The translations under genes and the position numbers were made by a program. A model generated the notes under the pieces. It was given only the letters and a program-made list of their open reading frames with translations. It was not told where the DNA came from and searched no databases. A DNA stretch of 56,251 nucleotides from positions 1 to 56,251 of IMG/VR virus record IMGVR_UViG_3300047090_000093; one strand, written 5' to 3'. Position 1 is the first letter of the stretch, and each line of letters opens with the position of its first letter. This DNA is from a virus (lineage: Duplodnaviria > Caudoviricetes). Positions 1,797-48,859 of the stretch are shown in pieces.

Positions 1797-3554
1797 ATGG
1801 CCGAACCAGGCTCACCCACTCAAATCCCCTGGCCGCTGTCGTCTTTCCCCGGCGCCAATTCGCAGGAGAGCGCGGGCAGGCTCATCAATTGTTCTGCAGA
1901 ACCGCTTGGCGATCCATCGGCCGGGAGATCGTCGGCACCGGCTCCGCAGGTCTGGCGCAGACAGCCAGGCTTTTCTCTGTTCGCGATTACTCCCGAGGTC
2001 GTAGCGTATCGTGGCGGTTTGATTGTCAACAATCTCAGTTTCGAGGTATGGGCAAACGTCTACACGGTCGACGCCAATGGCGGCGTGACGCTGCTGGGCG
2101 CGCTGCCTGGAACGAAGAAAGTCTCGATCGCCCATAATCAACGGCTGCCTTTGCCTGACGTGGTTGCGGTCGATATCGATAATGGGGCCTATCTACTTGC
2201 GGCACCAGGTCCGGTTCCTCCCGAGGGAACGCCCATCGCCCCGACGCCATGGGTTAATCCTGGATGTCCGCAATTTAATTCAGTATGTTTTCAAGATGGG
2301 TATTTTTTTCTTACGGCTGCCGATGGACGTTGTTTTGCTTCGGTATTAAATTCTGTTACCACAATCAACACGATAACCTTCATTACCTGCCAGGCCAAGT
2401 CGGACGTGATACTGCTGCGCGGTATCGCCTTCTCTGGCATGTTGTGGCTGTTCACCACGGGATCATGCGAGATATGGCAGGACGTGGCGGGCGTTGCGCC
2501 TGCGTTCCCTTACGGGCGGCTCTCCGTCATCGAATACGGATTGGTGCAGGCCAATGCCATCGCGGGATGGGAAACCGGATTTTCGGTTCTGATCTGGGTC
2601 GCGCAAGACTTCGGAGTGTATCTCTGTCAGCCTGGTCAGTTCGCACCGACCAAGATTTCACCGCCAGACCTAGATCGCCTGATCGAGGGCCAGGTACGGG
2701 CCGGAAATCTCCTAGAAGCCGGCGTCTACGCCTATGGCGGCAAGAAGTTCTGGGCGCTGTCCTCGCCGGCATGGACATGGGAATTCAATCTTTCGACCAA
2801 CAAGTGGAATGAGCGTTGGTCGCTCTCTGTCGCCACGGGATCGTTCGGCCGCTGGCGTTTTACCTGTGGGCATCCTGCCTTCAACAAGTGGCTCGGCGGC
2901 GATCAGGCGGGCGGCAACCTCCTATGGATCGATGTCACCAACTTTAGCGAGAACGGCGCGGTTTTGCTCTTCAGGATGGAGAGCGGTCCCGTCGCAGACT
3001 TCCCCAATCTGTTGCGCATTGCGCGGGCTGATTTCCAATTCGACAAAGGCGTAGGCATCGCGGTTGCGAATGTTCTCGTGAATGTCTTCGGTGCAGCAGC
3101 GGGAACCGGCGGCCTCGTGCGGCTCACGGTGAGCAATACCGCACGGATGGCTACCAACGATACCGGCATCGTGTCAGGTATCACCGGCACCACGGAAGCC
3201 AATGGCACATGGCCGTTGCGCATCATCGATCAGACGCATGTGGAATTGATAGGGAGCGTGTTCGTCCACGCCTATGTCTCCGGAGGGACGCTGGTCGATG
3301 TGACGAGTCCGCCAAATGAGATCAATCCTGCCGTCGCCATTTCGCTTTCGAAGGATGGCGGCAATCGCTGGGGCAATCCGCTGATCAGATATCTCGGCAA
3401 GCAAGGGCAGACGCAGCGCCCACGGGCGTCCGTCAAGTCAATGGGACTCTCTGGGCCGATGGGATGCCGGTGGCGGATCGATGTCAGCGATCCCGTCTAT
3501 TGCGGATTCCTGGAAGCGACACAGGCGAGCGATGCGCGGGATGTGGGAGCATAG
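1797..3554 (+). CDS. packaged DNA stabilization / tail hub protein (P22 gp10-like) with an inserted small beta domain
   Basis: 585 aa; gp10-like motifs (SVCFQDGYFF, KWNERWS, SLSKDGGNRWGNP); FCCH-like insert 'GIVSGITGTTEANGTWPLRIIDQTHVEL'. Confidence 0.8.
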   Translation: MAEPGSPTQIPWPLSSFPGANSQESAGRLINCSAEPLGDPSAGRSSAPAPQVWRRQPGFSLFAITPEVVAYRGGLIVNNLSFEVWANVYTVDANGGVTLLGALPGTKKVSIAHNQRLPLPDVVAVDIDNGAYLLAAPGPVPPEGTPIAPTPWVNPGCPQFNSVCFQDGYFFLTAADGRCFASVLNSVTTINTITFITCQAKSDVILLRGIAFSGMLWLFTTGSCEIWQDVAGVAPAFPYGRLSVIEYGLVQANAIAGWETGFSVLIWVAQDFGVYLCQPGQFAPTKISPPDLDRLIEGQVRAGNLLEAGVYAYGGKKFWALSSPAWTWEFNLSTNKWNERWSLSVATGSFGRWRFTCGHPAFNKWLGGDQAGGNLLWIDVTNFSENGAVLLFRMESGPVADFPNLLRIARADFQFDKGVGIAVANVLVNVFGAAAGTGGLVRLTVSNTARMATNDTGIVSGITGTTEANGTWPLRIIDQTHVELIGSVFVHAYVSGGTLVDVTSPPNEINPAVAISLSKDGGNRWGNPLIRYLGKQGQTQRPRASVKSMGLSGPMGCRWRIDVSDPVYCGFLEATQASDARDVGA

Positions 3555-8838: not shown

Positions 8839-10844
8839 ACCCATCGGCATGGGGTGCCGTCCCGGTAGAGGGACCATCCGCTTGGGGAGCTGTGCCGGTC
8901 GACGCCGATCCTACGGCCATGGACACGGCCAAGGATATCGGCAAGTCAGCCGGTATCGGGTTGGTGAAAGGCGCGATCGGTTTGGCTGGTTTCCCGGTTG
9001 ATGCCGCATCTGCCATCAATCGTGGTATTGACTGGGTTGAGGAGAAGCTTGGAGCGGCACCGCCGCAACAGCAACCCTCGGGACCTCCGACTCTTGGTTC
9101 CGAAGATATAAGAAAACGAGTCGAGAAGGTTACAGGTCCACTCTACGAATCAAAGACCACGCCCGGAAAAATTGTGCAGACTGGCGCCGAGTTTATCCCT
9201 GGCGCGGCGATCGGGGGCATTCCTGGGATTGCCCGACGAGCGCTTATTGGAGGCGCGGCGGGTGCGGGTTCCGAAGCGGCGGGCCAGATGGTCGAAGGCA
9301 ATCCACTAGAACCGTGGATTCGTCTCGGAACGGCCCTCGGGATCGGCGGTGCGACTGCTATGATGAGTCAGCCGCGTTCCGCGCAGCGATTCATCCGGGC
9401 GCAGATGCCGGATTATGTGAATGACCAAGCGGTGACGCACGCCGATGCGTTGATCCAGGATGCGGGGCAACGGGGTGTGACATTGACGTGGCCGGAAGCA
9501 CTCAGTCAAGTGACTGGACGGCCTGTGTTAAGAGACATGCAGCGCCTCCTTGAGATGGCGAAGCAGACGCGGGCGCCGATGCAGCAGGCTCTTGGTGATC
9601 GGCCCGCGCAGATTAGGACCGCAGCAGAGACAGAAATAGCCAACATTGCGCCGCAGACCACGCAGCCCTCAACGATCGGGCCAGCAGCAGGAACAGCGGC
9701 CGAGGGGGAACTCGGGCGGGTCCGCCAAACAATCAATCAAGTCTCCGAACCGTTTTACGATAGGGCCAAGACGTTTCGGTTATCACAAGCGGAAATGGCG
9801 CAAGTCCGTGCTATTCCAGGTTTTTTCAATGCCGAGAGGGCGGTGCGCCGAGACCCGCAACTCAATCGCGAAGTTGCGCATCTGCCTAATGACAGCATTG
9901 GGTTTTTGAATGAGGTAAAGAAGTTTCTCGATCAGCAGGCAGAAAACGCCGCTTCTCCGGTCCAGCAGGGCCGCAGTGTCCAGCGAGCGGCGGGATTTGG
10001 CCGGGATGCTCAAGCGGTTCGTGATGCCGCTATCAACTCTGAAGCGCGCGCTGGGCAGGCCAATTATGCGCAAGCGCTCAACATTCAGCAGACCGGCCGG
10101 CAACGCTATCTGGAGCCCTTGCTGCAGGGGCCGCTCGGCAAGCTGGCAGATAAAAATGTCACCACAAAAAATGCCGTCGAGGCGCTTTTCCCCGCTGAAC
10201 CAATCGCCGGCAGTGAGCACGAGATATCAACGGCGGTGGGGGCGTTGTCGCGCCAGAATCCCGGCGTGGCGCGACAGTTGGTTCGCGCCCATGTTGAGGC
10301 GAAGCTCAATGAGGCATTCGATGCGGCAGGGCGCGATATGGAAGCGGCGGGCTTTGCAGGGGCATCGTTTGCGCAAAGGCTGACTGGAAGTCCTGTTGTG
10401 GGCACGCAACGAGGTCAAAATTTTCGCGCAGCAGTAGAGGCGCTTCCGAATGGAAGGCAAATATGGCCGGGGATTGAGCGTTTTTTGGAAATCGCTCGCG
10501 CTACAGCCCGCCAGCCCATAGGCTCAAAAACTGCGACAAACGAAGCCGAACTCCATGCCATGGCGACGGGCAGATCACTTGCCAACCTCGCCAAGACAGC
10601 GGCGTCGCCGGGGGAATGGTGGCACGCCGCCCATGAAATGTGGGGAAAGTGGCAAACGGGTAACAATTTGAACGAATTAGCTCGGATCATAACCGATCCG
10701 CGGTCGGCGGAAGTCTTCCGGCGTATCGCGCGGACGCCACGTGCTACGCGGCAGGCGATCAACATGGCGGCTCGCATTACGGTCGGAGTGGGTCTCGGCG
10801 CCAAAACAGCGGCGGAAGATCGAGCGAACCAAGCCAGGCAATGA
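8823..10844 (+). CDS. large DNA ejection protein (gp16/gp20-like)
   Basis: 673 aa, helical Ala-rich, N-terminal PSAWGAVPV repeated twice, Gly-rich hydrophobic segments. Confidence 0.7.
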   Translation: MAEALDPSAWGAVPVEGPSAWGAVPVDADPTAMDTAKDIGKSAGIGLVKGAIGLAGFPVDAASAINRGIDWVEEKLGAAPPQQQPSGPPTLGSEDIRKRVEKVTGPLYESKTTPGKIVQTGAEFIPGAAIGGIPGIARRALIGGAAGAGSEAAGQMVEGNPLEPWIRLGTALGIGGATAMMSQPRSAQRFIRAQMPDYVNDQAVTHADALIQDAGQRGVTLTWPEALSQVTGRPVLRDMQRLLEMAKQTRAPMQQALGDRPAQIRTAAETEIANIAPQTTQPSTIGPAAGTAAEGELGRVRQTINQVSEPFYDRAKTFRLSQAEMAQVRAIPGFFNAERAVRRDPQLNREVAHLPNDSIGFLNEVKKFLDQQAENAASPVQQGRSVQRAAGFGRDAQAVRDAAINSEARAGQANYAQALNIQQTGRQRYLEPLLQGPLGKLADKNVTTKNAVEALFPAEPIAGSEHEISTAVGALSRQNPGVARQLVRAHVEAKLNEAFDAAGRDMEAAGFAGASFAQRLTGSPVVGTQRGQNFRAAVEALPNGRQIWPGIERFLEIARATARQPIGSKTATNEAELHAMATGRSLANLAKTAASPGEWWHAAHEMWGKWQTGNNLNELARIITDPRSAEVFRRIARTPRATRQAINMAARITVGVGLGAKTAAEDRANQARQ

Positions 10845-26326: not shown

Positions 26327-27022
26327 TCATGCTGCTTCCTCTTTTTCGGAAGCCCAGCCCCGAATTTTTGCGATCGACTCGGCATAATCAAGCGCGGCCA
26401 TCACTTCGCGCCGGTTCTCTTTACCAGCCCAATATTGCCGGCCTTCTTCGATCGTCTTGTTGCGACAACCGATCTGCACACGTTGCTCGCCGGCTTCGGT
26501 TATATATGTCCATGAGGACCATCCGTCGGGATAACCAATGATTGCGAAGTCTTTAATTTTGGCGCCCGCGAGGCGGGCGCCCGCGAGGTAGGCGCCCGCG
26601 AGGTTGGCGGCCGTGAGGTCGGCGCGCGTGAGGTCGGCGCCCGCGAGGTAGGCGCGCGTGAGGTTGGCGCGCGTGAGGTAGGCGCGCGTGAGGTCGGCGC
26701 GCGTGAGGTCGGCGCGCGTGAGGTCGGCGCCCGCGAGGTAGGCGCCCGTGAGGTTGGCGCGCGTGAGGTAGGCGCGCGTGAGGTCGGCGCGCGTGAGGTC
26801 GGCGCCCGTGAGGTCGGCGGCCGTGAGGTTGGCGCGCGTGAGGTCGGCGCGCGTGAGGTCGGCGCCCGCGAGGTTGGCGGCCGTGAGGTTGGCGCCTGTC
26901 TTGATTGCCCACCTAACAGCTAGGCCGACTTTGGCTGAGGTCGGCGTATCTTTAGCGCAGTCGATTTCCGCAATAAACTGGATTGCGCCGGAAAAGTGAT
27001 TGGTAATGCTGAATTTAATCAT
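26327..27022 (-). CDS. pentapeptide repeat protein
   Basis: about 22 tandem A(D/N/Y)L(T/A)(R/G/A) repeats; C-terminal QIGC motif. Confidence 0.9.
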   Translation of the reverse strand: MIKFSITNHFSGAIQFIAEIDCAKDTPTSAKVGLAVRWAIKTGANLTAANLAGADLTRADLTRANLTAADLTGADLTRADLTRAYLTRANLTGAYLAGADLTRADLTRADLTRAYLTRANLTRAYLAGADLTRADLTAANLAGAYLAGARLAGAKIKDFAIIGYPDGWSSWTYITEAGEQRVQIGCRNKTIEEGRQYWAGKENRREVMAALDYAESIAKIRGWASEKEEAA

Positions 27023-27207
27023 GCCGCCTCCAGATCGGTCCGATGGTGTGCAACCTCTGCGTCGATCTCGTGGGCAAGATAGCCGAGCCTGGCTAGGTGG
27101 TGGCGGAAGCCAGCCTCGGAGAGGCGTCCTCGCCGGAATTCTCCGGCACAAAGCGCGAGGTCGATCTTCCAGACATTGAAGGGGTGATCTACTTTAAGGG
27201 CGGACAT
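27019..27207 (-). CDS. hypothetical protein
   Basis: 62 aa, overlaps the start of the next gene. Confidence 0.5.
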   Translation of the reverse strand: MSALKVDHPFNVWKIDLALCAGEFRRGRLSEAGFRHHLARLGYLAHEIDAEVAHHRTDLEAA

Positions 27208-30195: not shown

Positions 30196-30389
30196 TCGAT
30201 TACCTCGATCTCACCCACATCCGCGGCATCCACAAGTTCGTCCCGATCCCGGACGCAGAGGATCATTTGCGCGTCGGATGGATGGCGGTACTAACCGGAG
30301 AGCCGCATCCGGTGATGGTTAATTACCGAGTGCATATGGTCTGGTGCTGCAAGTGCGAGATGGTGATTCCGTGGAGGGTGGCCGCATGA
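30192..30389 (+). CDS. hypothetical protein
   Basis: 65 aa with ATGA overlaps at both ends. Confidence 0.6.
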   Translation: MIDYLDLTHIRGIHKFVPIPDAEDHLRVGWMAVLTGEPHPVMVNYRVHMVWCCKCEMVIPWRVAA

Positions 30390-31651
30390 CCGACCATCTC
30401 CCCGCTGTCCGCCGTCTCCGTGATGAGAAAGGTTGGGGTTGCCGCCAGATCGGTGCCGAACTCGGCATCGGCAAGGACGCGGCGCTGCGGCTGTTAAACA
30501 AACTTAAACTGGAGGATGCGAAGCGTTCCCCGATTTCCGTCGTTCCAGGCTCACTTTCTGGCTCGATCCTCGCCCAATATGCTGCTGCCTGCCGGACCCT
30601 CGCCGAAGCCACGCGCGCCGATGAGGTCATCGGGGCACGAGAGGCGCTCGATCATGTCAAGCTTTATGGGCGCCAGGTCAAGGATCGCACCCTGGTTGCT
30701 GACGCGACGGCGTTCCAACTCCGCGCCGACCGCAAGCTTGGGGAGATGATCACAAGCGCCGAGGCAGACGGTTTGATCCGCGCCGGACGCCCTAAAAAAA
30801 ACCCTACCGAGTCGGAAGGGTTTACACTTGCCGAAGCGGGTGTCGATTACAAGACATCATCGCGCGCACAACGGGCGGCCTCCATATCGGAACGGGCTTT
30901 CGAGGCCATGGTGGAGGCTACGCGGGAACGCATCATTTCCGGTCGCGCAACCAAGATCAGCGGGGAGACCATTAACGGCGCCCGCTCCGTCATGGGCTCG
31001 CGTGTCGAGCCGGACGATAGCCTGGATTACTTTCCAACCCCGCCATGGGCAACGCGGGCATTGTGCGAGCATGTGCTGCCGCAAGTCGTGGTGGGATGGT
31101 TCGACGTTGACATACGTAAATCCTGCTGGGAGCCGGCCTGCGGCGAAGGCCATATGTCCAAGGTGCTCAAAGAGTATTTATGGAAAGTACAAGAAACAGA
31201 CGTTTTCGACTACGGGACGCACGGCGTTATTTATGATTTTCTTGATGAGGGCAATCCTCCGTTTACGTGCGACTGGATCATTACCAACCCTCCATTTGGT
31301 GATCGCACCATCCCCTTCATTCTCCGCGCCATCGATCTGGCCCGCGTCGGTGTGGCGATGTTCGTCCGCCTGCAAATCCTCGAAGGCCAAGAGCGCTATG
31401 AGAAGATATTCAATCTGCACCCCCCGACATTGGTCGCGTTCTTCTCCGAACGGGTCAACCTCTGCAAGGGCCGCTGGGACCCCGATGGCACCACAGCCAC
31501 GGCCTATGTCTGGCTGGTATGGATGCAGGATCGCGCTCCGATGGCGCCGTTCTGGATTCCGCCGGGACAAAAAATTGCGCTCACCAAGGCAGATGACCGG
31601 GCACGGTTTGCGGCATGGTCAATGCCTGACACTGCGGAGGCGGCGGAATGA
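30386..31651 (+). CDS. HTH-fused SAM-dependent DNA (adenine) methyltransferase
   Basis: DYFPTPPW, WEPACGEGHM, IITNPPF motifs; N-terminal HTH. Confidence 0.85.
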   Translation: MTDHLPAVRRLRDEKGWGCRQIGAELGIGKDAALRLLNKLKLEDAKRSPISVVPGSLSGSILAQYAAACRTLAEATRADEVIGAREALDHVKLYGRQVKDRTLVADATAFQLRADRKLGEMITSAEADGLIRAGRPKKNPTESEGFTLAEAGVDYKTSSRAQRAASISERAFEAMVEATRERIISGRATKISGETINGARSVMGSRVEPDDSLDYFPTPPWATRALCEHVLPQVVVGWFDVDIRKSCWEPACGEGHMSKVLKEYLWKVQETDVFDYGTHGVIYDFLDEGNPPFTCDWIITNPPFGDRTIPFILRAIDLARVGVAMFVRLQILEGQERYEKIFNLHPPTLVAFFSERVNLCKGRWDPDGTTATAYVWLVWMQDRAPMAPFWIPPGQKIALTKADDRARFAAWSMPDTAEAAE

Positions 31652-33131: not shown

Positions 33132-33622
33132 GCGACTATTGGCTCGGCATCTACACCAAACCCCAGGCGGAAGGTCGGGCCGAGTTGGGCATCAAGGCCG
33201 CAAGAATCCCCGTATTCTGCCCATGGGTGCGAACACGGGTCGCCCAAAGAAACGGCGATCGATATGTGATCATCAAGCCGCTGTTCGAGCGCTATGTCTT
33301 CGCTCAGTGCGATGCCGGCCGCATCGATCGCCTATTGGAAATCGATGGTGTCGAGACTGTCTTGCGGTGCGGTCGCGGCAAGGTGTCCCGGATTCCCGCG
33401 GTCCTCATCGATACCTTTCAACGGGCCGAAGGCTGCGGCGTCTTCGACCGAGCGGATGCCGTCTTCCGTGAAGGCGATACGGTGAAGATCATCGGCGGCC
33501 CCTATGCCGGCTTGATCGCCAAGGTGCGCAGCGCGAAAGTGAAAAGACGCGTCAGTCTTCTGATCGATTTCGTTCACAAAATGACAATTTCGGTGGATAG
33601 CCTGGAGATGGTGAGCGCGTGA
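33128..33622 (+). CDS. nusG: NusG/RfaH-family antiterminator
   Basis: NGN domain (W..YTKPQAE, PLFERYVF) plus KOW (FREGDTVKIIGGPYAG). Confidence 0.88.
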   Translation: MSDYWLGIYTKPQAEGRAELGIKAARIPVFCPWVRTRVAQRNGDRYVIIKPLFERYVFAQCDAGRIDRLLEIDGVETVLRCGRGKVSRIPAVLIDTFQRAEGCGVFDRADAVFREGDTVKIIGGPYAGLIAKVRSAKVKRRVSLLIDFVHKMTISVDSLEMVSA

Positions 33623-34725
33623 GCATCCGCATCATCAATGGCGACTGCCGGGACGTGCTGGCTACCCTCCCGCCAGACAGCGTGCATTGCTGCGTAACCT
33701 CGCCGCCGTATTGGGGCTTGCGGGATTATGGCACGGCTAAGTGGGAAGGTGGTGTTCTAGGGTGCGATCATCAGGAAAGCGCGCCATCTCGCACCGCCGC
33801 GAGCATCGCATCATCCAGTCTCGACGGCGGAAAGGGCAGCGTTCACCTAAGTCACCAGTTTAAGGGCGATTGCCTGCGCTGCGGTGCCCGACGCATCGAC
33901 TCCCAGATCGGCCTCGAATCCACCTATCAGGAATACGTCGAGCAGATGGTGGCCGTGTTCCGCGAGGTGCGGCGGGTCATGAGACGGGACGGCACATGCT
34001 GGCTCAATCTGGGCGACTCCTATGCCGCGTCGCGTTCGTACCAAGTCACCGACAACATGAATCCCGCAGTCGGCCCTACGCGCCACCTAGGCCGCGCTGT
34101 GCCGCCCGCCGGGCTCAAGCAAAAGGATTTAGTGGGCATCCCCTGGCGCGTCGCCTTCGCGCTCCAGGACGATGGGTGGTATCTGAGACAAGACCTGATC
34201 TGGTCAAAACCCAACCCGATGCCGGAGAGCGTCACGGATCGATGCACGAAGGCGCACGAGTATCTGTTTCTGCTGACCAAGAGCGCAAGATACTACTACG
34301 ATGCGGAGGCGATCAAGGAAGGCGCTAGCGCGAACACGCACGCTCGCGGCTCGGGTATCGGTATCAAGAACGCCACGGTCGACCGATCGAGCAACATCCT
34401 ACATAACAGCGACTATGCGTCAAAAATCAATGGCTATGTGGATCGCCGCAACAAGCGATCCGTCTGGGAAGTCGCCACACAGCCCTTTAGTGAAGCCCAC
34501 TTCGCCACCTTCCCGCCAGCCCTGATAGAGCCATGTATCCTCGCGGGGTGCCCGAAGGGAGGGACGGTCCTTGATCCCTTCGGTGGCGCCGGCACCACCG
34601 GCCTCGTCGCCGATCGGCTCCAGCGTTCTGCCATCCTGATCGAACTCAATCCCGAATATGCCGCAATGGCGCAGCGCCGCATCTATGGCGATTCCCCTCT
34701 TTTTACACAGACTGCCGCAGAATAG
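33619..34725 (+). CDS. beta-class N4-C/N6-A DNA methyltransferase
   Basis: VTSPPY, HFATFP, VLDPFGGAGTT. Confidence 0.92.
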   Translation: MSIRIINGDCRDVLATLPPDSVHCCVTSPPYWGLRDYGTAKWEGGVLGCDHQESAPSRTAASIASSSLDGGKGSVHLSHQFKGDCLRCGARRIDSQIGLESTYQEYVEQMVAVFREVRRVMRRDGTCWLNLGDSYAASRSYQVTDNMNPAVGPTRHLGRAVPPAGLKQKDLVGIPWRVAFALQDDGWYLRQDLIWSKPNPMPESVTDRCTKAHEYLFLLTKSARYYYDAEAIKEGASANTHARGSGIGIKNATVDRSSNILHNSDYASKINGYVDRRNKRSVWEVATQPFSEAHFATFPPALIEPCILAGCPKGGTVLDPFGGAGTTGLVADRLQRSAILIELNPEYAAMAQRRIYGDSPLFTQTAAE

Positions 34726-37664: not shown

Positions 37665-37853
37665 ATGGATAATGAGATTGTGCATATCGAACAGCGCTGG
37701 TGTGTTGTTTTCAGCAGCGGCGTGATCACCTGCCACTCAAAAGAAGAGGCGCTGGAATTGCTGGCAACCGTCAACTTTGTTGACGGCAAGCAGTGGACGC
37801 CAAAACAAATAGCTGAAATGCACAGCGCGCGGAACGAAGCGGGACGCCGCTGA
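37665..37853 (+). CDS. hypothetical protein
   Basis: 62 aa, GAGGG SD. Confidence 0.5.
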   Translation: MDNEIVHIEQRWCVVFSSGVITCHSKEEALELLATVNFVDGKQWTPKQIAEMHSARNEAGRR

Positions 37854-37906
37854 TGTCAGGCTTCGGCGTCGCCCCTCTAAGGCAATCGAACGGCGAGGAT
37901 TCATCA

Positions 37907-38152
37907 ATGCCATGGAACTCGAAATCGTTCGCGAGCCGTCATAATCACGCCCTCTCCGGTGCCGGAGCCGCCAAGGCCGCCTCGGTCGCGAACGCGATCC
38001 TTCGGGATAGCGGTGACGAGGGCAAGGCCATCCGGATTGCAAACTCCAAGGTCAAGGGCATGCGCAAGAGGGGCCGTATCTCGGACAAGGCACACGCCAA
38101 GCATAGCTCGGGGCTCGACGGTGAGCGGGATGTGGACGCGGCTACCGCTTGA
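37907..38152 (+). CDS. small basic protein
   Basis: MPWNSKSF..ANAILR..DEGKAIRIAN. Confidence 0.65.
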   Translation: MPWNSKSFASRHNHALSGAGAAKAASVANAILRDSGDEGKAIRIANSKVKGMRKRGRISDKAHAKHSSGLDGERDVDAATA

Positions 38153-38162
38153 ATATCTATCA

Positions 38163-38254
38163 CGCACCGCACCGCGTCGCGTCGCTCAGCATCGCGTCGC
38201 TCAGCATCGCAACGCACCGCGTCGCACCGCAACGTTTCGCGTCGCTCCGCAACG
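38163..38254 (+). repeat. pentamer-phased CGC-NN array 1 (18 units)
   Basis: 15 of 18 units start CGC (others AGC x2, CGT); variable dinucleotides; ends CGCAACG. Confidence 0.9.
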
Positions 38255-38270
38255 TTCTTATTCATTCAAA

Positions 38271-38391
38271 TTCCCTAGCCACTACTAGGGAGAGCGATGA
38301 AGATGAATCCCGAGACTCCATCGTCTCCGGGTGATGCTTCATCGAGCATGAAGTGTCCCCTGACAAATCGCTCCGGGCGTAGTGGGCTCGG
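38271..38391 (+). ncRNA. structured RNA between array 1 and the RAMP-like gene
   Basis: pairings AGCCACTAC/GTAGTGGGCT, GAGCGAT/ATCGCTC, CGATGAAG/CTTCATCG and CCCGAGAC/GTCTCCGGG. Confidence 0.5.
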
Positions 38392-38396
38392 AGACG

Positions 38397-39002
38397 ATGG
38401 AGAACTTCGCAATGAAAATTGTTACAGCGCATCTCAAAAGCATATCACCCTATTCACAGGCGAAGCACTACGAAGTAGAAAAGTTACAAGGTGAGTCGCA
38501 CGACGACTATTACCGCCGCACTTGGCGCAATCATATGCACGCCGACGGCAACGGAATGACGTTCATCTCTCCAGGAGCATTCAAAAACTGCCTATCAGAA
38601 TCCGCTTTATTCATGTCCATCCCTGTTCCTGGAGGAGGAAAGGCGAAGTACACCAAGAATTTCGAGGCCGGCGTAATGGTAATTACGCCAGTGCCGCTTG
38701 GTGTGCACCGAGACAAAGTCGAATGCGAATGCCTGTTTTTGCCTTCGGACGGAAAACGTGGCGGGTCGAAACGGGTCAATAAATATTATCCATTCTTTCC
38801 CAAATGGGAGGCGTCCGTCGAGTTTGTGATTGTGGACGATACGGTGTTGCAATCGTCAGTAATCGATAAGTCCAAGACCGTATTCGAGCAAGTTCTTATC
38901 GGGGCTGGTCAGTTTATTGGTATCGGTCGGTTTAGACCTCGCAAAAATGGATGGTATGGAAGATTCTCGGTGGAGAGCATTAAAATCGAGCAAGGAGTGT
39001 AA
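38397..39002 (+). CDS. stand-alone RAMP/Cas7-like protein
   Basis: N-terminal strand 'AHLKSISPY', 'ISPGAFKNCL' helix, C-terminal Gly-rich loop 'AGQFIGIGRFRPRKNGWYGRFSV'. Confidence 0.65.
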   Translation: MENFAMKIVTAHLKSISPYSQAKHYEVEKLQGESHDDYYRRTWRNHMHADGNGMTFISPGAFKNCLSESALFMSIPVPGGGKAKYTKNFEAGVMVITPVPLGVHRDKVECECLFLPSDGKRGGSKRVNKYYPFFPKWEASVEFVIVDDTVLQSSVIDKSKTVFEQVLIGAGQFIGIGRFRPRKNGWYGRFSVESIKIEQGV

Positions 39003-39005
39003 CCT

Positions 39006-39509
39006 GTGCCCGATTTCAAGCAATCGCGCGAAAGTCAGATTATATATGATCTCTTTCGCAACATCCGCAATAGAGACCCGGCGCTGATCACTTGGGACGA
39101 GTTGCTGGAGGCAACGGGGAAACAGCGCCGCACCCAGATTGCCGGCGCAATCATGACGGCAACTCGCCGCGCTAGAAAAGACGATCAACTTGTCATCGAA
39201 TGTGATCGAGGACTCGGATATCGGCTGCGTATAGACAAAGAATTATCCATCAGTGGACAACGAGCAATCGATCGGTCTCGACGTATCCAACGGACGGGAC
39301 TACAAAAGATGGATTGTGCGGACATCAGCAAACTCGATGCTGAGAACAAAGCAATTCACAATGTTCGCAAAAGTGTGCTTGAACTTGGAATGCTCACGAC
39401 CCGCCCGAGGACGGTGGCAAGCGTCACGCAGATGGTTATGCGGAAACATAATCAGCTTGACGAGCAAGAGTTGCTAGCAGCCGCCAAAGAAGCTCTGAGC
39501 CGCCGGTAA
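39006..39509 (+). CDS. winged-HTH-like protein associated with the RAMP-like gene
   Basis: ITWDELLEATG...IECDRGLGYRL (helix plus wing); AAGGAG SD. Confidence 0.6.
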   Translation: MPDFKQSRESQIIYDLFRNIRNRDPALITWDELLEATGKQRRTQIAGAIMTATRRARKDDQLVIECDRGLGYRLRIDKELSISGQRAIDRSRRIQRTGLQKMDCADISKLDAENKAIHNVRKSVLELGMLTTRPRTVASVTQMVMRKHNQLDEQELLAAAKEALSRR

Positions 39510-39529
39510 TAACTACTACACTGCGGCGC

Positions 39530-39636
39530 CGCAACTTGACGCTGCGCGCCGCAGTGCCGCACCCCGCAGCGCATCTCGCCGCATCGCCGCACCCCGCCGC
39601 GCATCGCGACGCTTCGCTCTGCAACTCAACGCAACG
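39530..39636 (+). repeat. pentamer-phased CGC-NN array 2 (21 units)
   Basis: 14 of 21 units start CGC (others TGC, CAC, CTC, CTT); ends CAACTCAACGCAACG. Confidence 0.85.
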
Positions 39637-39650
39637 AATTATGAGCGTCT

Positions 39651-39930
39651 CCGTGATCCGCACTCGACGTAAGAGGCGAAAGTTCATGTGGTCCCTCCAT
39701 CAATTATGGCTTCGCTGGAAATATTGGCGCGCCACAATTCGTAATGGTCACAAGTTTCACGGGTCGGTATGGAGATGGCTACTCAATTGGCCGTGATCCG
39801 CACTCGACGTAAGAGGCGAAAGTTCATGTGGTCCCTCCATCAATTATGGCTTCGCTGGAAATATTGGCGCGCCACAATTCGTAATGGTCACAAGTTTCAC
39901 GGGTCGGTATGGAGATGGCTACTCAATTGG
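39651..39930. repeat. exact 140-bp tandem duplication
   Basis: 39651-39790 is identical to 39791-39930. Confidence 0.95.
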
Positions 39931-40000
39931 GAGATACCAATCAATTATAAGTTGCTGAAAAGCGACCCCGATTATGAGCGTCGATTAATGGCATTTAAGC

Positions 40001-41752
40001 ATGAGCAACCGCCGCCCTCTTGAGCTTGATCTACATCTGCATCCCAAACAGTGGATAGCATTCGAGACCGGGGCAACAGAGGTTCTATTCGGCGGCGCGG
40101 CCGGTGGCGGAAAATCGATGTGCATGCGTATTGCTGGCGTCGTTTGGGGCGCCGCAATTCCAGGACTGCAAATCTATCTCTTCCGCCGCAGCCGTCTTGA
40201 TCTGATCAAGAATCACATGGAGGGCCCCAACGGCTTTCGCGCGCTATTGGCTGGATGGGCTAACAGTGGCTTCTGTTCGGTCATCGAGGACGAGATTCGC
40301 TTCTGGAACGGAAGCAAGATTTATCTTTGCCACTGCAAAGACGAAAAGGATATCTACCGCTACCAGGGCGCCGAGATTCACGTTCTATTGATGGATGAAC
40401 TTACCCATTTTTCGTCCACAATGTACCGATTTCTCCGCAATCGCGTCCGCATGGTCGGAATTGATCTGCCGTCTCAATATGCCGGTCGGTTTCCTCGCAT
40501 CTTTGCGAGTGCAAACCCAGGAAACATCGGACATCTGTGGGTCAAGGAAACATTCATCGCGGGCGTGCAGCCTTTAGTTGCCCGTTTGATGCCCGCCTCT
40601 GAAGGCGGAATGATCCGCCAATTCATCCCCGCTCGGTTGGAAGACAACCCGAGCATGATGCAGGACGATCCCGGCTATGAACAGCGCCTTGAAGGTTTGG
40701 GCTCGGAAGCTCTCGTCAAGGCGATGCGGTACGGCGATTGGGATGTTGTCGATGGCGCCTTCTTCGACTGTTGGCGCAATGACAAGCACGTTATCCCGCC
40801 GTTCTCTATTCCGCCGGATTGGCTGCGCTTTCGCAGCGGTGACTGGGGTTCGGCTTCTCCCGCAAGTATTGGATGGTGGGCAGTCGTCCAAGATGATTTC
40901 GAAATCCCCGCTGTGGGTGATCGACTTGGAAGGCGGCGATTTCATCAAGACCACGCACCCAATAGATGCTTGGACCCAATTGGAGAAATTGGCGAGGACG
41001 GCGCCGCGGTGCAGGCCGGTATCGTGCTCCGTCGAGGCTCCCTCGAAGACGAACCGGATATTTCAGGACGACGACTTGACTTACAACGGGCTGATCATCC
41101 GGGACAGCGCAACGGGGAATCCGATCGACTTGGGATGGAACACGCCGGACGAGGAGGCTTGATCCTCCGTCGCGGCTCTCTCATCCGCTATCGTGAGGAT
41201 TACATCTCCTGCGGCCCCAACAAGGGCCTAAAGCTCACCGCCGAACAAGTCGCAGACCGCATCATCGAGCGGGAGGCGAAAGACCCGAAGCTGTCTTACG
41301 GTGTCCTTGACCCTTCCGCATTCAAACAAGACGGCGGCCCCTCGATCGCCGAGCGCATCAACGGCAAACTGGTCAAGGCAGAGCTCGCCGCCTTCCGTCC
41401 TGCGGACAATGCACGCGTCAGCAGGATCGCCGGCCATGGCGGCGGCCCCATGAGCGGCTGGGATGTGGTTCGATCAAGGATGATCGGAACGGGCACCGCG
41501 GTCGATCCCGATCCCATGATTTTCTGGTTTTCGACCTGCGTCGATTCCATCCGCACGATCCCGGTCCTGCAGCACGACATTCATCAGCCCGAGGATGTGG
41601 ACAAGAACGCAGAAGACCATTCGGCTGACGATGCTCGGTACGCTTGTCTGAGCCGGCCCTACACCAAGACGAAGCTCGTGCCGGAAGCGCCGAAGGATGC
41701 CTATCGGCCTCCGAGCGAGACGATTCCGATGGACAGTTGGAAAACGCTCTAA
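40001..41752 (+). CDS. terL: terminase large subunit with insertion in the nuclease domain
   Basis: Walker A GGAAGGGKS, Walker B LLMDELT, ASANPG, DWG, EDHSADDARY. Confidence 0.93.
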   Translation: MSNRRPLELDLHLHPKQWIAFETGATEVLFGGAAGGGKSMCMRIAGVVWGAAIPGLQIYLFRRSRLDLIKNHMEGPNGFRALLAGWANSGFCSVIEDEIRFWNGSKIYLCHCKDEKDIYRYQGAEIHVLLMDELTHFSSTMYRFLRNRVRMVGIDLPSQYAGRFPRIFASANPGNIGHLWVKETFIAGVQPLVARLMPASEGGMIRQFIPARLEDNPSMMQDDPGYEQRLEGLGSEALVKAMRYGDWDVVDGAFFDCWRNDKHVIPPFSIPPDWLRFRSGDWGSASPASIGWWAVVQDDFEIPAVGDRLGRRRFHQDHAPNRCLDPIGEIGEDGAAVQAGIVLRRGSLEDEPDISGRRLDLQRADHPGQRNGESDRLGMEHAGRGGLILRRGSLIRYREDYISCGPNKGLKLTAEQVADRIIEREAKDPKLSYGVLDPSAFKQDGGPSIAERINGKLVKAELAAFRPADNARVSRIAGHGGGPMSGWDVVRSRMIGTGTAVDPDPMIFWFSTCVDSIRTIPVLQHDIHQPEDVDKNAEDHSADDARYACLSRPYTKTKLVPEAPKDAYRPPSETIPMDSWKTL

Positions 41753-47556: not shown

Positions 47557-48072
47557 ATGGCTCGACGCACGACGGCCGTTACATCGATCACGCCGACCGC
47601 AACGGCCGACACTGTGGACCTTGTTGATGCCACCTATCCGTTTATCCTGCGAGGCGGCAGCGACACCCAGATCAATTATATCTGGGAAATCAAGATGAAC
47701 GGCCAGGCCACGTCATCCGCGCCGACCTATATGCAGCTCGCACAGGACAGCCAAGTCGGGACTGGCAGTAATTCCTTGGGGGCGACACAAAATGACGCGC
47801 CGAATAATCCAGCGACAGCGGCATTGGCAGCGCCGGCTCTCGTTGGGAATACGAATGCAACCCTCAAACCGCGGCGCTCGTCAACGCTGTTGCTGCAGGA
47901 CATGTCCTTCAATGCTAACGGCGGCATCCAGTTCATGAAGGCAAACAAAATCGAGGAATGTTACGTCGTGATCGGAAACGTTGCATCTACCGGGGGTGAG
48001 GTTTCGTTGAGCGCATTCACCGGAGGGACGCCGGGCGCGATGGGATGTTATATGGTCTATGAGAGCATGTGA
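47557..48072 (+). CDS. hypothetical virion-type protein
   Basis: 171 aa, AAGGA SD. Confidence 0.7.
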   Translation: MARRTTAVTSITPTATADTVDLVDATYPFILRGGSDTQINYIWEIKMNGQATSSAPTYMQLAQDSQVGTGSNSLGATQNDAPNNPATAALAAPALVGNTNATLKPRRSSTLLLQDMSFNANGGIQFMKANKIEECYVVIGNVASTGGEVSLSAFTGGTPGAMGCYMVYESM

Positions 48073-48076
48073 CAGT

Positions 48077-48859
48077 ATGATCCAAGTCAAGCAATGCCGC
48101 CATGGCCGGCTGATGTTTTACGATAACGACGCCTATATTGGGCGCTCGCTAAATACGTCAGGCACATATTCCGAGGAAGAGATTCTGTTGTGGCAGCAGA
48201 TCGTGCGCCCTGGCGACGTGGTGGTCGAAGTCGGTGCCAATATTGGTGCGCATACCATATGGTTTGCCAAGGCGGTCGGCCGAGACGGCAAAGTGTTTGC
48301 GATCGAACCTCAGCGGCAAATGTATCAGATGCTCGTTGGCAATCTCGCGCTCAATGAGATCACCAACGCCAATGCCATGATGGGAGCCGCCGGAGAGAAG
48401 ATCGGGACCGTTCGCGTTCCGCCGGTTGATTACGACAAAACCGGAAACTTCGGTGGCCTTTCGATCGGCGGGGAGAGCGGCGAAGAGGTTGCAGTGATCA
48501 CGCTTGACTCGTTCCGTATGACGCGCGTCGACCTTATCAAGATCGATGTGGAGGGCATGGAGGCGAGCGTATTGCGTGGTGCGCATCAGACCATCGAACG
48601 ATGTCGGCCGGTGCTTTACGTGGAAAACGACCGCAAGGAAAAGTCTGACGAATTGATCGCCCTCATCTCCGATATGGGATATCGGCTCTATGGCCACACG
48701 CCGCTTATCAATCGCGAGATATTCGGCGATACCGTGTCGCTCAACATGCTGTGCGTGGTTGGCGATGCCAATATCACTGGACTGCGCGAGATCGACCGCG
48801 ATCACGCCATGCGACGCCAAGCCATGGTTGCGGCGCTTGAGCATGGGGCGGTGTTGTGA
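48077..48859 (+). CDS. FkbM-family methyltransferase
   Basis: VEVGANIGAHT, AIEP, LIKIDVEGME, PVLYVE. Confidence 0.9.
   Translation: MIQVKQCRHGRLMFYDNDAYIGRSLNTSGTYSEEEILLWQQIVRPGDVVVEVGANIGAHTIWFAKAVGRDGKVFAIEPQRQMYQMLVGNLALNEITNANAMMGAAGEKIGTVRVPPVDYDKTGNFGGLSIGGESGEEVAVITLDSFRMTRVDLIKIDVEGMEASVLRGAHQTIERCRPVLYVENDRKEKSDELIALISDMGYRLYGHTPLINREIFGDTVSLNMLCVVGDANITGLREIDRDHAMRRQAMVAALEHGAVL

Follow-up and report, generated by a model that had tools for sequence, protein, structure and literature searches.

The systems known as VIPR (Viral Interference Programmable Repeat), described in bioRxiv preprints in 2026, are the closest described counterparts of a locus that occupies positions 38163-39636 of a 56,251-bp phage sequence (IMG/VR record IMGVR_UViG_3300047090_000093; the whole stretch, referred to below as the window, is the entire virus record), and it is this locus and its relation to VIPR that we analyze here. 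According to two of the preprints, a VIPR locus carries genes for a RAMP protein, Vipr, and for an accessory protein (vap), flanked by vrRNAs of 9-16 YNNGG units that each end in a structured 3′ tail; targets are read as xNN, with one base skipped, and the system silences transcription of rival phages and satellites (10.64898/2026.04.26.720920, 10.64898/2026.04.26.720927). The same preprints describe the Vipr of SUSP1 as binding double-stranded DNA and silencing from either strand, and the SUSP1 locus as one upstream vrRNA followed by vipr, vap1 and downstream vrRNAs (10.64898/2026.04.26.720920, 10.64898/2026.04.26.720927). Satellites and rival phages have also been found to hijack a phage's Vipr with solo vrRNAs of their own (published VIPR work).

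Further detail comes from individual preprints. The first VIPR preprint distinguishes seven types, lists the alternative repeats NNNGG, YNNNG and NNNNG, allows for "a related consensus", and describes internal degeneracy of vrRNAs as frequent in working systems. In the SUSP1 structure there is one protomer per repeat; H17 and D177 read G1, R138 and W178 hold G2, and Y3 sits in a pocket that shuts out purines (structural VIPR preprint). Guides directed against rival vipr genes are said to be common, both at early codons and near the gene end (third VIPR preprint), and a later survey reports 21 clusters with non-canonical triplets, such as GAC/NN, CAC/NN, WGT/NN and TGH/NN (10.64898/2026.10.21.760802).

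The locus in the window has a type II-like VIPR layout, with array 1, a leader, vipr, a gene for a 167-aa protein and array 2 following one another on the plus strand. Taken as a whole, it is very probably a VIPR system built on CGC arrays, with a vap-like gene and a SUSP1-like mechanism, carried by a temperate phage of soil or rhizosphere. The initial annotation of the window, made from the letters alone, had proposed an RNA-guided system and named VIPR as a kind of system that it resembles, and VIPR does exist in print. Like type II VIPR, as represented by SUSP1 and a Pseudomonas fulva prophage, the locus encodes a Vipr RAMP of roughly 195 aa with a homologous G-loop and thumb, and sets it between an upstream pentamer array and a small DNA-binding-like vap that is followed by downstream pentamer sequence; it is phage-borne, lacks cas genes, and combines a fixed trinucleotide with a free dinucleotide (NN). 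A relative from the same clade, moreover, reads with a 1-nt skip, skips the wobble base and targets vipr genes, as type II systems do.

The differences from type II VIPR are equally specific. The fixed triplet is CGC and not GGY, and at the corresponding protein positions the window has Y126 for R138 and R173/F174 for D177/W178. Its arrays are longer (18 and 21 units, against 9-16 in SUSP1), and there is one on each side of the genes in place of the three found downstream in SUSP1; arrays of the CGC type end in one to four CGC-AA units, a CG and A/T-rich sequence, with no evident long invariant tail or pseudoknot. The accessory protein is only faintly similar to vap1, the phage is temperate, and its host is an uncultured soil bacterium. 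Two flanking arrays and a partner gene, which had been counted among the marks of a distinct variant, belong to the published norm, being already described for SUSP1; what stands as a real difference is the CGC triplet, together with matching thumb residues, the longer arrays and the short CGCAACG end. Novelty is limited in the same way for the code. CGC itself is absent from the main texts of the first VIPR preprint and of 10.64898/2026.10.21.760802, whose figures or supplements may show it, but non-GGY repeats in general had been reported before (YNNNG, GAC/NN, CAC/NN), and the window unit, rewritten as C-NN-CG, falls within the published YNNNG class. The arrays of 10.64898/2026.10.21.760802 share with those of the window a period of 5, a fixed triplet other than GGY and a position beside a Vipr-like fold.

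Array 1 (38163-38254) comprises 18 CGC-NN units in a single phase (38163-38252; triplets CGC 15, AGC 2, CGT 1) followed by a terminal CG, and array 2 (39530-39636) comprises 21 units, likewise in a single phase (39530-39634; CGC 14, TGC 2, CAC 2, CTC 2, CTT 1) and followed by CG, its end reading TGCAA CTCAA CGCAA CG. Array 2 may be one in-phase unit longer, beginning with GGCGC at 39525. There are no indels in either array, and the pyrimidine at position 3 is retained where the strict VIPR trinucleotide GGY is not. When period-5 autocorrelation was computed in 60-nt windows over all 56,251 bases, with the mean plus 5 standard deviations as the cut-off for outliers, the two arrays were the sole regions to exceed it (0.65 for array 1 and 0.60 for array 2, where the whole window has a mean of 0.256 and a standard deviation of 0.058), and 0.65 is the highest autocorrelation for any period from 2 to 10 in the whole window. 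Unit counts and autocorrelation thus bear out what the initial annotation had said of two indel-free pentamer arrays of 18 and 21 units with a common ending. This ending, CGCAACG, closes array 1 at 38248 and array 2 at 39630, and it also occurs inside array 1 at 38208 and 38228. The copy at 38228 is followed by TTT, like the true array ends in five other loci of the family (L002, L008, L026, L077 and L079), and the sequence CGCAACGTTT at this position looks like an earlier, second 3′ end; array 1 may be made up of two nested guides, or of a 14-unit guide and a leftover of 4 units. Compared by eye, without an alignment or a motif search, the sequences 3′ of the two arrays do not resemble each other.

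The first gene between the arrays, vipr (38412-39002, plus strand), encodes a 196-aa single-RRM RAMP with a predicted thumb hairpin at about residues 104-129 and the G-loop GIGRFRPR at residues 168-177. Both open reading frames (ORFs) of the initial annotation are present, but the first had been read from 38397, and its start is most likely the ATG at 38412, since homologues are 193-201 aa long and begin with MK; a GGAG lies 9 nt upstream of this ATG. Searched as a single sequence, the protein has as its best match among all PDB sequences the Vipr protein of SUSP1 (36pp_D, E 0.0082), and with a profile of 21 homologues the same match is obtained at E 1.7e-5. When the protein is compared by hhalign with the Vipr of a Felixounavirus record, the 76 C-terminal columns align with a probability of 96.7% and E 4e-10; they include the G-loop, where GIGRFRPR...GRF in the window is placed against GVGDWRPR-FGRF. 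A total of 36 residues are invariant over the 21 aligned homologues, the window protein included. The AlphaFold2 (AF2) model (predicted local distance difference test, pLDDT, 82.1; predicted template modelling score, pTM, 0.77) yields 26 Foldseek matches on the PDB at E<=1e-3, with E down to 1e-5, and the matches listed are all type VII Cas7, Csm3, Cmr4, Cmr1 or Cas7-11 (gRAMP) chains, so that the RAMP/Cas7 fold first suspected from sequence hallmarks agrees with the predicted structure. Pfam has no match for the protein, and in PHROGs it matches just the unnamed phrog_4652 (E 6.7e-10). On the combined indications of sequence and predicted fold, the 196-aa protein is a Vipr-family RAMP. The family is large, with 874 cluster representatives at E<=1e-3 and 123 at E<=1e-30, and of the 72 GenBank phage records that match, not one reaches a coverage of >=80% of the query, which leaves the window's clade without a close relative among those records.

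Pentamer arrays accompany Vipr homologues well beyond the window. The survey covered 22 loci from genomes and 80 from IMG/VR, with homologues 36-72% identical, making 103 loci when the window is counted, and a motif-blind detector of period 5 was applied within -700/+1500 nt of each homologue. Period-5 regions were found in 98/103 loci, and the same detector set to the control periods 4, 7, 8 and 11 returned 3-8/103 loci, and 25-30/103 when set to 3, 6 and 9. The dominant triplet is GGC in 44 loci, CGC in 19 and GAC in 15, followed by GTC, CTC, GTT, CAC and others, and the third base is C in all of the common variants, which agrees with the published pyrimidine-only Y3 pocket. Unit statistics were drawn from the 16 other non-redundant CGC loci (60 arrays, 1192 units). 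In these, the information content is 1.21/1.13/1.26 bits at the triplet positions, values that are inflated since the parser selects on the triplet, against 0.08/0.01 bits at the NN positions, which this selection does not affect, and all 16 dinucleotides occur at NN. The co-occurrence of arrays with homologues, and a conserved triplet beside a free dinucleotide, are thus both borne out in the family. CGCAACG terminates 46 of the 60 arrays, whose median length within the clade is 18 units, and this ending is a feature of the clade and no coincidence of the window. Overall, the flanking arrays of the window are the pentamer arrays of the Vipr family, with CGC replacing GGY. As a separate observation, L027 carries two very long arrays that are identical in L028, one at 2210-2484 with 55 units in phase and one at 3104-3328 with 45; they mix CGC and CTC triplets and contain internal endings of the CGCAA CGTAT type, and may consist of a number of guides, fused head to tail or staggered.

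How such guides are read can be approached through the relatives, for which 1778 ten-unit stretches from 236 arrays of non-redundant loci were compared with 0.93 Mb of non-redundant loci, arrays masked, allowing for 0 to 3 skipped bases between dinucleotides. The number of stretches with a best match of >=18/20 was 0 with no skipped base, 12 with one, 0 with two and 28 with three. The 28 skip-3 matches were discarded as a signal, all of them being leftover identity between the arrays of L058/L060 and an unmasked copy in L055. Of the skip-1 matches, 100 of 104 rows fall in vipr genes, always with codon position 3 as the skipped base, and matches are found on both strands of candidate regions. 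When whole arrays were used as guides (up to 20 units, the last two dropped), the skip rules behaved alike, with 12, 14, 10 and 16 arrays at >=0.8, and the rules were separated by the ten-unit windows only.

The example nearest to the window is found in L025 (the same provirus as L001), whose Vipr is 67% identical to that of the window and belongs to the same CGC-only clade. The guide is the first array after vipr (L025:3089-3203, equivalent to L001:3589-3703), and its dinucleotides CG CC AG AA AA GG TA TA GG AG TT are codon positions 1-2 of RPRNNGYYGRF, that is, of the Vipr G-loop. With a 1-nt skip and over 14 units, this guide matches the vipr of L026 at 26/28 positions, that of L086 at 23 and that of L084 at 22. 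Its match to its own vipr is 19/28, with two mismatches at Arg codons where the guide has AG and the gene CG, and its match to the vipr of the window is likewise 19/28 over 14 units, with 18/20 at 38936-38965. Against the whole window, this anti-vipr guide and one L003 match (18/20, 9560-9589) were the only matches among the relatives' guides, and about 0.3 such 18/20 matches would be expected in the window by chance. The gapped reading of dinucleotides, initially put forward for the window, is thus supported for a CGC-type relative, and the sequence matches support the view that the 1-nt-skip code and its anti-vipr use extend to the window's family, CGC guides included. A GGC-type guide provides an observation of the same sort: the array upstream of vipr in L046 (2421-2480) matches codons 18-27 of the L093 vipr (L093:1056-1085) at 19/20, with the skip on the wobble base.

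These matches also bear on the kind of nucleic acid that is targeted. The nearest solved folds besides Vipr itself are RNA-targeting Cas7 proteins of types VII, III-A, III-B and III-E, and a filament that binds or cuts transcripts, as the type III and VII backbones do, might be envisioned for the window on this ground. We regard such RNA targeting as very unlikely, because the homologue that has been characterised is a binder of double-stranded DNA, with silencing from either strand, the family's candidate 1-nt-skip matches lie on both strands, and there is no nuclease partner in the locus.

The triplet itself appears to be coupled to the protein. A tree of 81 distinct Vipr proteins shows clustering of the triplet, which changes 27 times where shuffles average 44.4 (0/200 shuffles as low), and the window groups with L023-L026, a CGC-only group with a Shimodaira-Hasegawa-like approximate likelihood ratio (SH-aLRT) support of 91. 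The columns most informative for the first base of the triplet are residues 110 and 126: L110 and Y126 occur together in 16/17 CGC loci, the exception (L029) having only a weak array, and V110 and F126 occur together in 32/32 GGC loci. For the second base, residues 106, 173 and 109 carry the most information, and E106, R173 and F109 are present in 49/49 loci having G at this position; among GAC loci, R173 is lost in 8/13 and E106 in 9/13. In the AF2 model, the predicted thumb hairpin contains residues 106, 109, 110 and 126, the G-loop contains residue 173, and by alignment Y126 corresponds to R138 and R173 to D177 of SUSP1, both published contacts of the GG bases. This coupling, as seen in sequences and model, is the pattern that direct reading of the triplet through thumb and G-loop predicts, and L110 and Y126 (first base) and E106, F109 and R173 (second base) are candidate triplet-reading residues.

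The guides of the window were searched for targets of their own in a series of scans. Collection scans used four exact 9-unit seeds against IMG/VR and two 11-unit seeds against metagenome contigs. Units 1-9 of array 1 matched 3 IMG/VR loci, and units 6-14 matched 2 loci that represent one sequence, at 21/28. For array 2, units 8-16 gave 0 matches, and the sole IMG/VR match of units 1-9 (L104) runs for 10 units and is then random, with the skip at codon position 1, and was set aside as chance. The two 11-unit seeds gave 0 and 0 matches in metagenome contigs. One candidate among the matches, a single sequence represented by L105/L107, agrees over 11 consecutive units with 24/28 NN positions, and by our own estimate an 11-unit match would be expected about 0.01-0.02 times. 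It was rejected as a target on its GC content (0.49), on the position of the skip (codon position 1, not the wobble base) and on habitat as judged by neighbour genes. These neighbours are 2OG-Fe(II) oxygenase and peroxiredoxin genes, a combination that we take to resemble marine cyanophage gene content.

A number of results weigh against a working, SUSP1-like system in the window. The likeness of the protein to SUSP1 Vipr is confined to the C-terminal 40%, neither array is followed by an evident 3′ tail of the long, conserved sort that the SUSP1 pseudoknot represents, and both the transcription of the arrays and its strand are points that we infer by analogy; neither a sigma-70-like promoter nor an intrinsic terminator was found beside the arrays (promoter-like sites numbered 0, and the 1 terminator-like site lies on the minus strand inside vipr, within shuffle expectation). 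The arrays themselves are imperfect, array 1 having only 6 different dinucleotides at NN and array 2 being fairly degenerate, with CGC in 14/21 units. The association between residues and triplet may have arisen from a single ancestral event, as there is 1 independent pair on supported branches for the first base and there are 4 for the second, too few for a sign test, and, once columns 110 and 126 are excluded, the approximately unbiased (AU) test does not reject the grouping of all CGC loci in one clade (p 0.153). Target searches, finally, returned little. Five of the six collection scans gave chance-level or zero matches; within the window, the best self-target reaches 21/36 for array 1 and 23/42 for array 2; and among the 103 loci no ten-unit stretch of either array reaches >=17/20 under skip 0 or skip 1, with one match of >=17/20 for each array under skip 2. 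Patterns of 12 units with up to 3 mismatches found 0/5 when run against a Rhodospirillales metagenome-assembled genome (MAG) and 4 related virus records, on three occasions, and a 14-unit pattern found 0/401 among genomes of the class to which this MAG belongs. Since the searches needed near-exact seeds, a target with an 80% NN match could have escaped them.

Several of these results could be accounted for by a decayed or silent locus, descended from a working VIPR system, in which the guides of the window no longer act. The array 2 triplets that are perfect in only 14/21 units, the internal 15-nt duplication and the 6 kinds of NN in array 1, and the lack of a target in any collection searched all point in this direction. 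Decay is nevertheless improbable in our judgment: the two intact ORFs lie close together and keep all 36 invariant residues; the phase is unbroken over 18 and 21 units with zero indels; contigs of 4 separate runs carry the locus unchanged; internal vrRNA degeneracy is described as frequent in working systems; and the target searches were shallow, being limited to exact seeds.

The second gene of the locus (39006-39509, plus strand) encodes a protein of 167 aa and begins with a GTG located 3 nt past the vipr stop, and the order of vipr followed by the accessory gene matches that in the Felixounavirus record. The protein has 7 close relatives only in a large protein collection. A tblastn search covering the 22 genome loci nevertheless detected homologues of the accessory gene in 5 of them, adjoining vipr homologues in the distant loci L017, L020, L007, L010 and L013 (E 1e-12 to 4e-4), and the gene is thus a recurrent, vap-like accessory gene. 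Its model (pLDDT 76.5, pTM 0.47) has a winged-helix-like N-terminal domain of helix-strand-helix-helix-strand-strand order at residues about 8-74, followed by long C-terminal helices. The initial annotation had named the partner a winged helix-turn-helix protein, and the model is in keeping with this, as are VIA-align scores of Z 6-8 to winged-helix domains (ScpB, BirA-N, OmpR/PhoB and BrxR), but the latter lie in the middling range for this tool, and Foldseek returned 0 matches on the PDB at E<=1e-3, the weak ones being MarR, GntR and OmpR-type regulators. Pfam has no match for the protein and PHROGs just one at E 0.094, and comparison with Felixounavirus vap1 by hhalign gives a probability of 22%, with a GxGYR wing motif in common. 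Judged by its predicted structure, the 167-aa protein is likely to be a winged-helix DNA binder in the vap position.

A putative DNA-binding partner invites another view of the arrays, namely that they act as DNA, in the form of iterons, sites for the winged-helix protein or packaging signals. The position of the locus, 365 nt upstream of the large terminase gene and beside a 140-nt tandem duplication, would suit such a role, as would the lack of any promoter-like site. Yet the arrays track the RAMP homologue and not the terminase, in 98/103 loci and in many genomic contexts; many loci have arrays but no detected accessory homologue (one was found in 5/22 genome loci); a free dinucleotide between fixed triplets is unlike a protein-binding iteron; and in a relative, the array follows a rival gene codon by codon, in steps of 3 nt, for which a model of DNA sites has no explanation. 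We therefore give an exclusively DNA-level function very little weight, and return to the arrays as sources of guides.

By analogy with SUSP1, several steps can be envisioned for the VIPR system of the window. Both arrays would be transcribed on the plus strand, probably with the operon, and each pentamer of the transcript would be covered by one Vipr protomer, whose thumb and G-loop would hold the CGC bases flipped out while the NN dinucleotides stay exposed. The NN dinucleotides of the resulting filament would then pair with double-stranded DNA reading xNNxNN and block transcription there, with the winged-helix partner presumably assisting on the DNA; likely targets would be genes that belong to competing phages, satellites or prophages of that host. 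The comparison with CRISPR follows from this scheme. Like the Cas7 backbone proteins (Csm3, Cmr4, type VII Cas7 and Cas7-11), the modelled Vipr has an RRM core, a G-rich loop and a thumb hairpin, and by analogy it would also place one protomer on each fixed stretch of guide and flip bases at regular intervals. The period differs, at 5 nt with 3 bases hidden in Vipr against 6 nt with 1 hidden in the Cas7 backbone, and the guide information is scattered over dinucleotides where CRISPR keeps it in a spacer. Compared with class 1 CRISPR systems, the locus also has no CRISPR array, Cas5, Cas6, Cas10, large subunit or adaptation genes. The window as a whole agrees with what had been noted at the outset, with no CRISPR-like array in the TRF output and 0/70 ORFs matching a Cas model (PADLOC, E<=1e-5).

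Between array 1 and vipr lies a structured leader (38255-38411, plus strand) with two predicted hairpins. The fold of 38253-38415 has an energy of -66 kcal/mol (z -4.6, with 0/200 shuffles equally good), which upholds the structured leader noted in the initial annotation. The first hairpin, of 8 bp, comes after array 1 at about 38271-38292, and the second, a long one at about 38311-38409, covers with its 3′ arm the GGAG ahead of the vipr start. Close relatives are without such a leader, their upstream array stopping 10-20 nt before the start codon. An Rfam scan of 37800-40100 gave 0 matches at E<=1, and therefore no hammerhead ribozyme, unlike some VIPR types.

The remainder of the window includes genes for an integrase, a repressor-like protein, a replication initiator, three methyltransferases, a large terminase, a portal and tail proteins, and the phage is temperate. 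Its habitat is soil or rhizosphere, the locus being identical, with zero differences, in DNA contigs of 4 separate soil or rhizosphere runs. No RNA run was among those found to contain the stretch. The large terminase gene (40001-41752) lies 365 nt downstream of the locus, and between array 2 and this gene, at 39651-39930, is a perfect tandem duplication of a 140-nt unit, each copy of which carries the palindromic sequence AATATTGGCGCGCCACAATT. The duplication is real, given that a contig spanning its junction (60 nt, 39761-39820) is present in 3/4 runs and that the contig depth of the unit is about 1.5-2 x that of its neighbours, and a packaging or regulatory site is a possible role for it. 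The terminase ORF itself has a middle stretch (roughly residues 300-400) that is rich in Arg, Gly and Asp, un-terminase-like and crossed only loosely by PHROG alignments; an insertion could account for it, as could a frame problem.

Two further observations lie farther from the locus. The methyltransferase genes (30344-31651, 33619-34725 and 48059-48859) include two DNA methyltransferases, with one strong type II MTase match (PADLOC, E 9e-107), the third being annotated merely as methyltransferase (phrog_8156); no partner endonuclease was noticed. At 26561-26896, within the minus-strand ORF 26327-27151, the 15-nt unit GGCGCCCGTGAGGTC is repeated 22.4 times with an 88% match; this ORF encodes a pentapeptide-repeat protein with PHROG matches of unknown function and one weak tail-fibre match, and its repeat is unrelated to the 5-nt arrays.

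Why a single protein family, 40-70% identical, should use at least six triplets (GGC, CGC, GAC, GTC, CTC and CAC) is a question that the residues described above invite. One tentative and rather speculative answer is that the triplet works as a switchable "lock", in which V110L together with F126Y would retune Vipr from GGC to CGC and create an orthogonal protein-guide pair, freeing the phage from hijack by solo vrRNAs and from guides aimed at its arrays. Such a lock would explain the variety of triplets within one family, but we consider it more doubtful than otherwise.

As a discovery the locus is incremental, since systems of this kind, with this layout, were already in print, and so were non-GGY motifs. 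In its 2026 description, VIPR is a compact DNA binder that can be programmed, and CRISPR effectors may descend from it; against this background the window offers a clean natural case of a guide whose protein-held part is CGC and not GGY, and its clade contains no fewer than 18 further loci. It adds in silico evidence that the 1-nt-skip code holds for CGC-type guides too, and it names candidate residues whose exchange could show in what way Vipr recognises its repeat. Should re-specification of the triplet prove possible, several orthogonal VIPR effectors could coexist in one cell.

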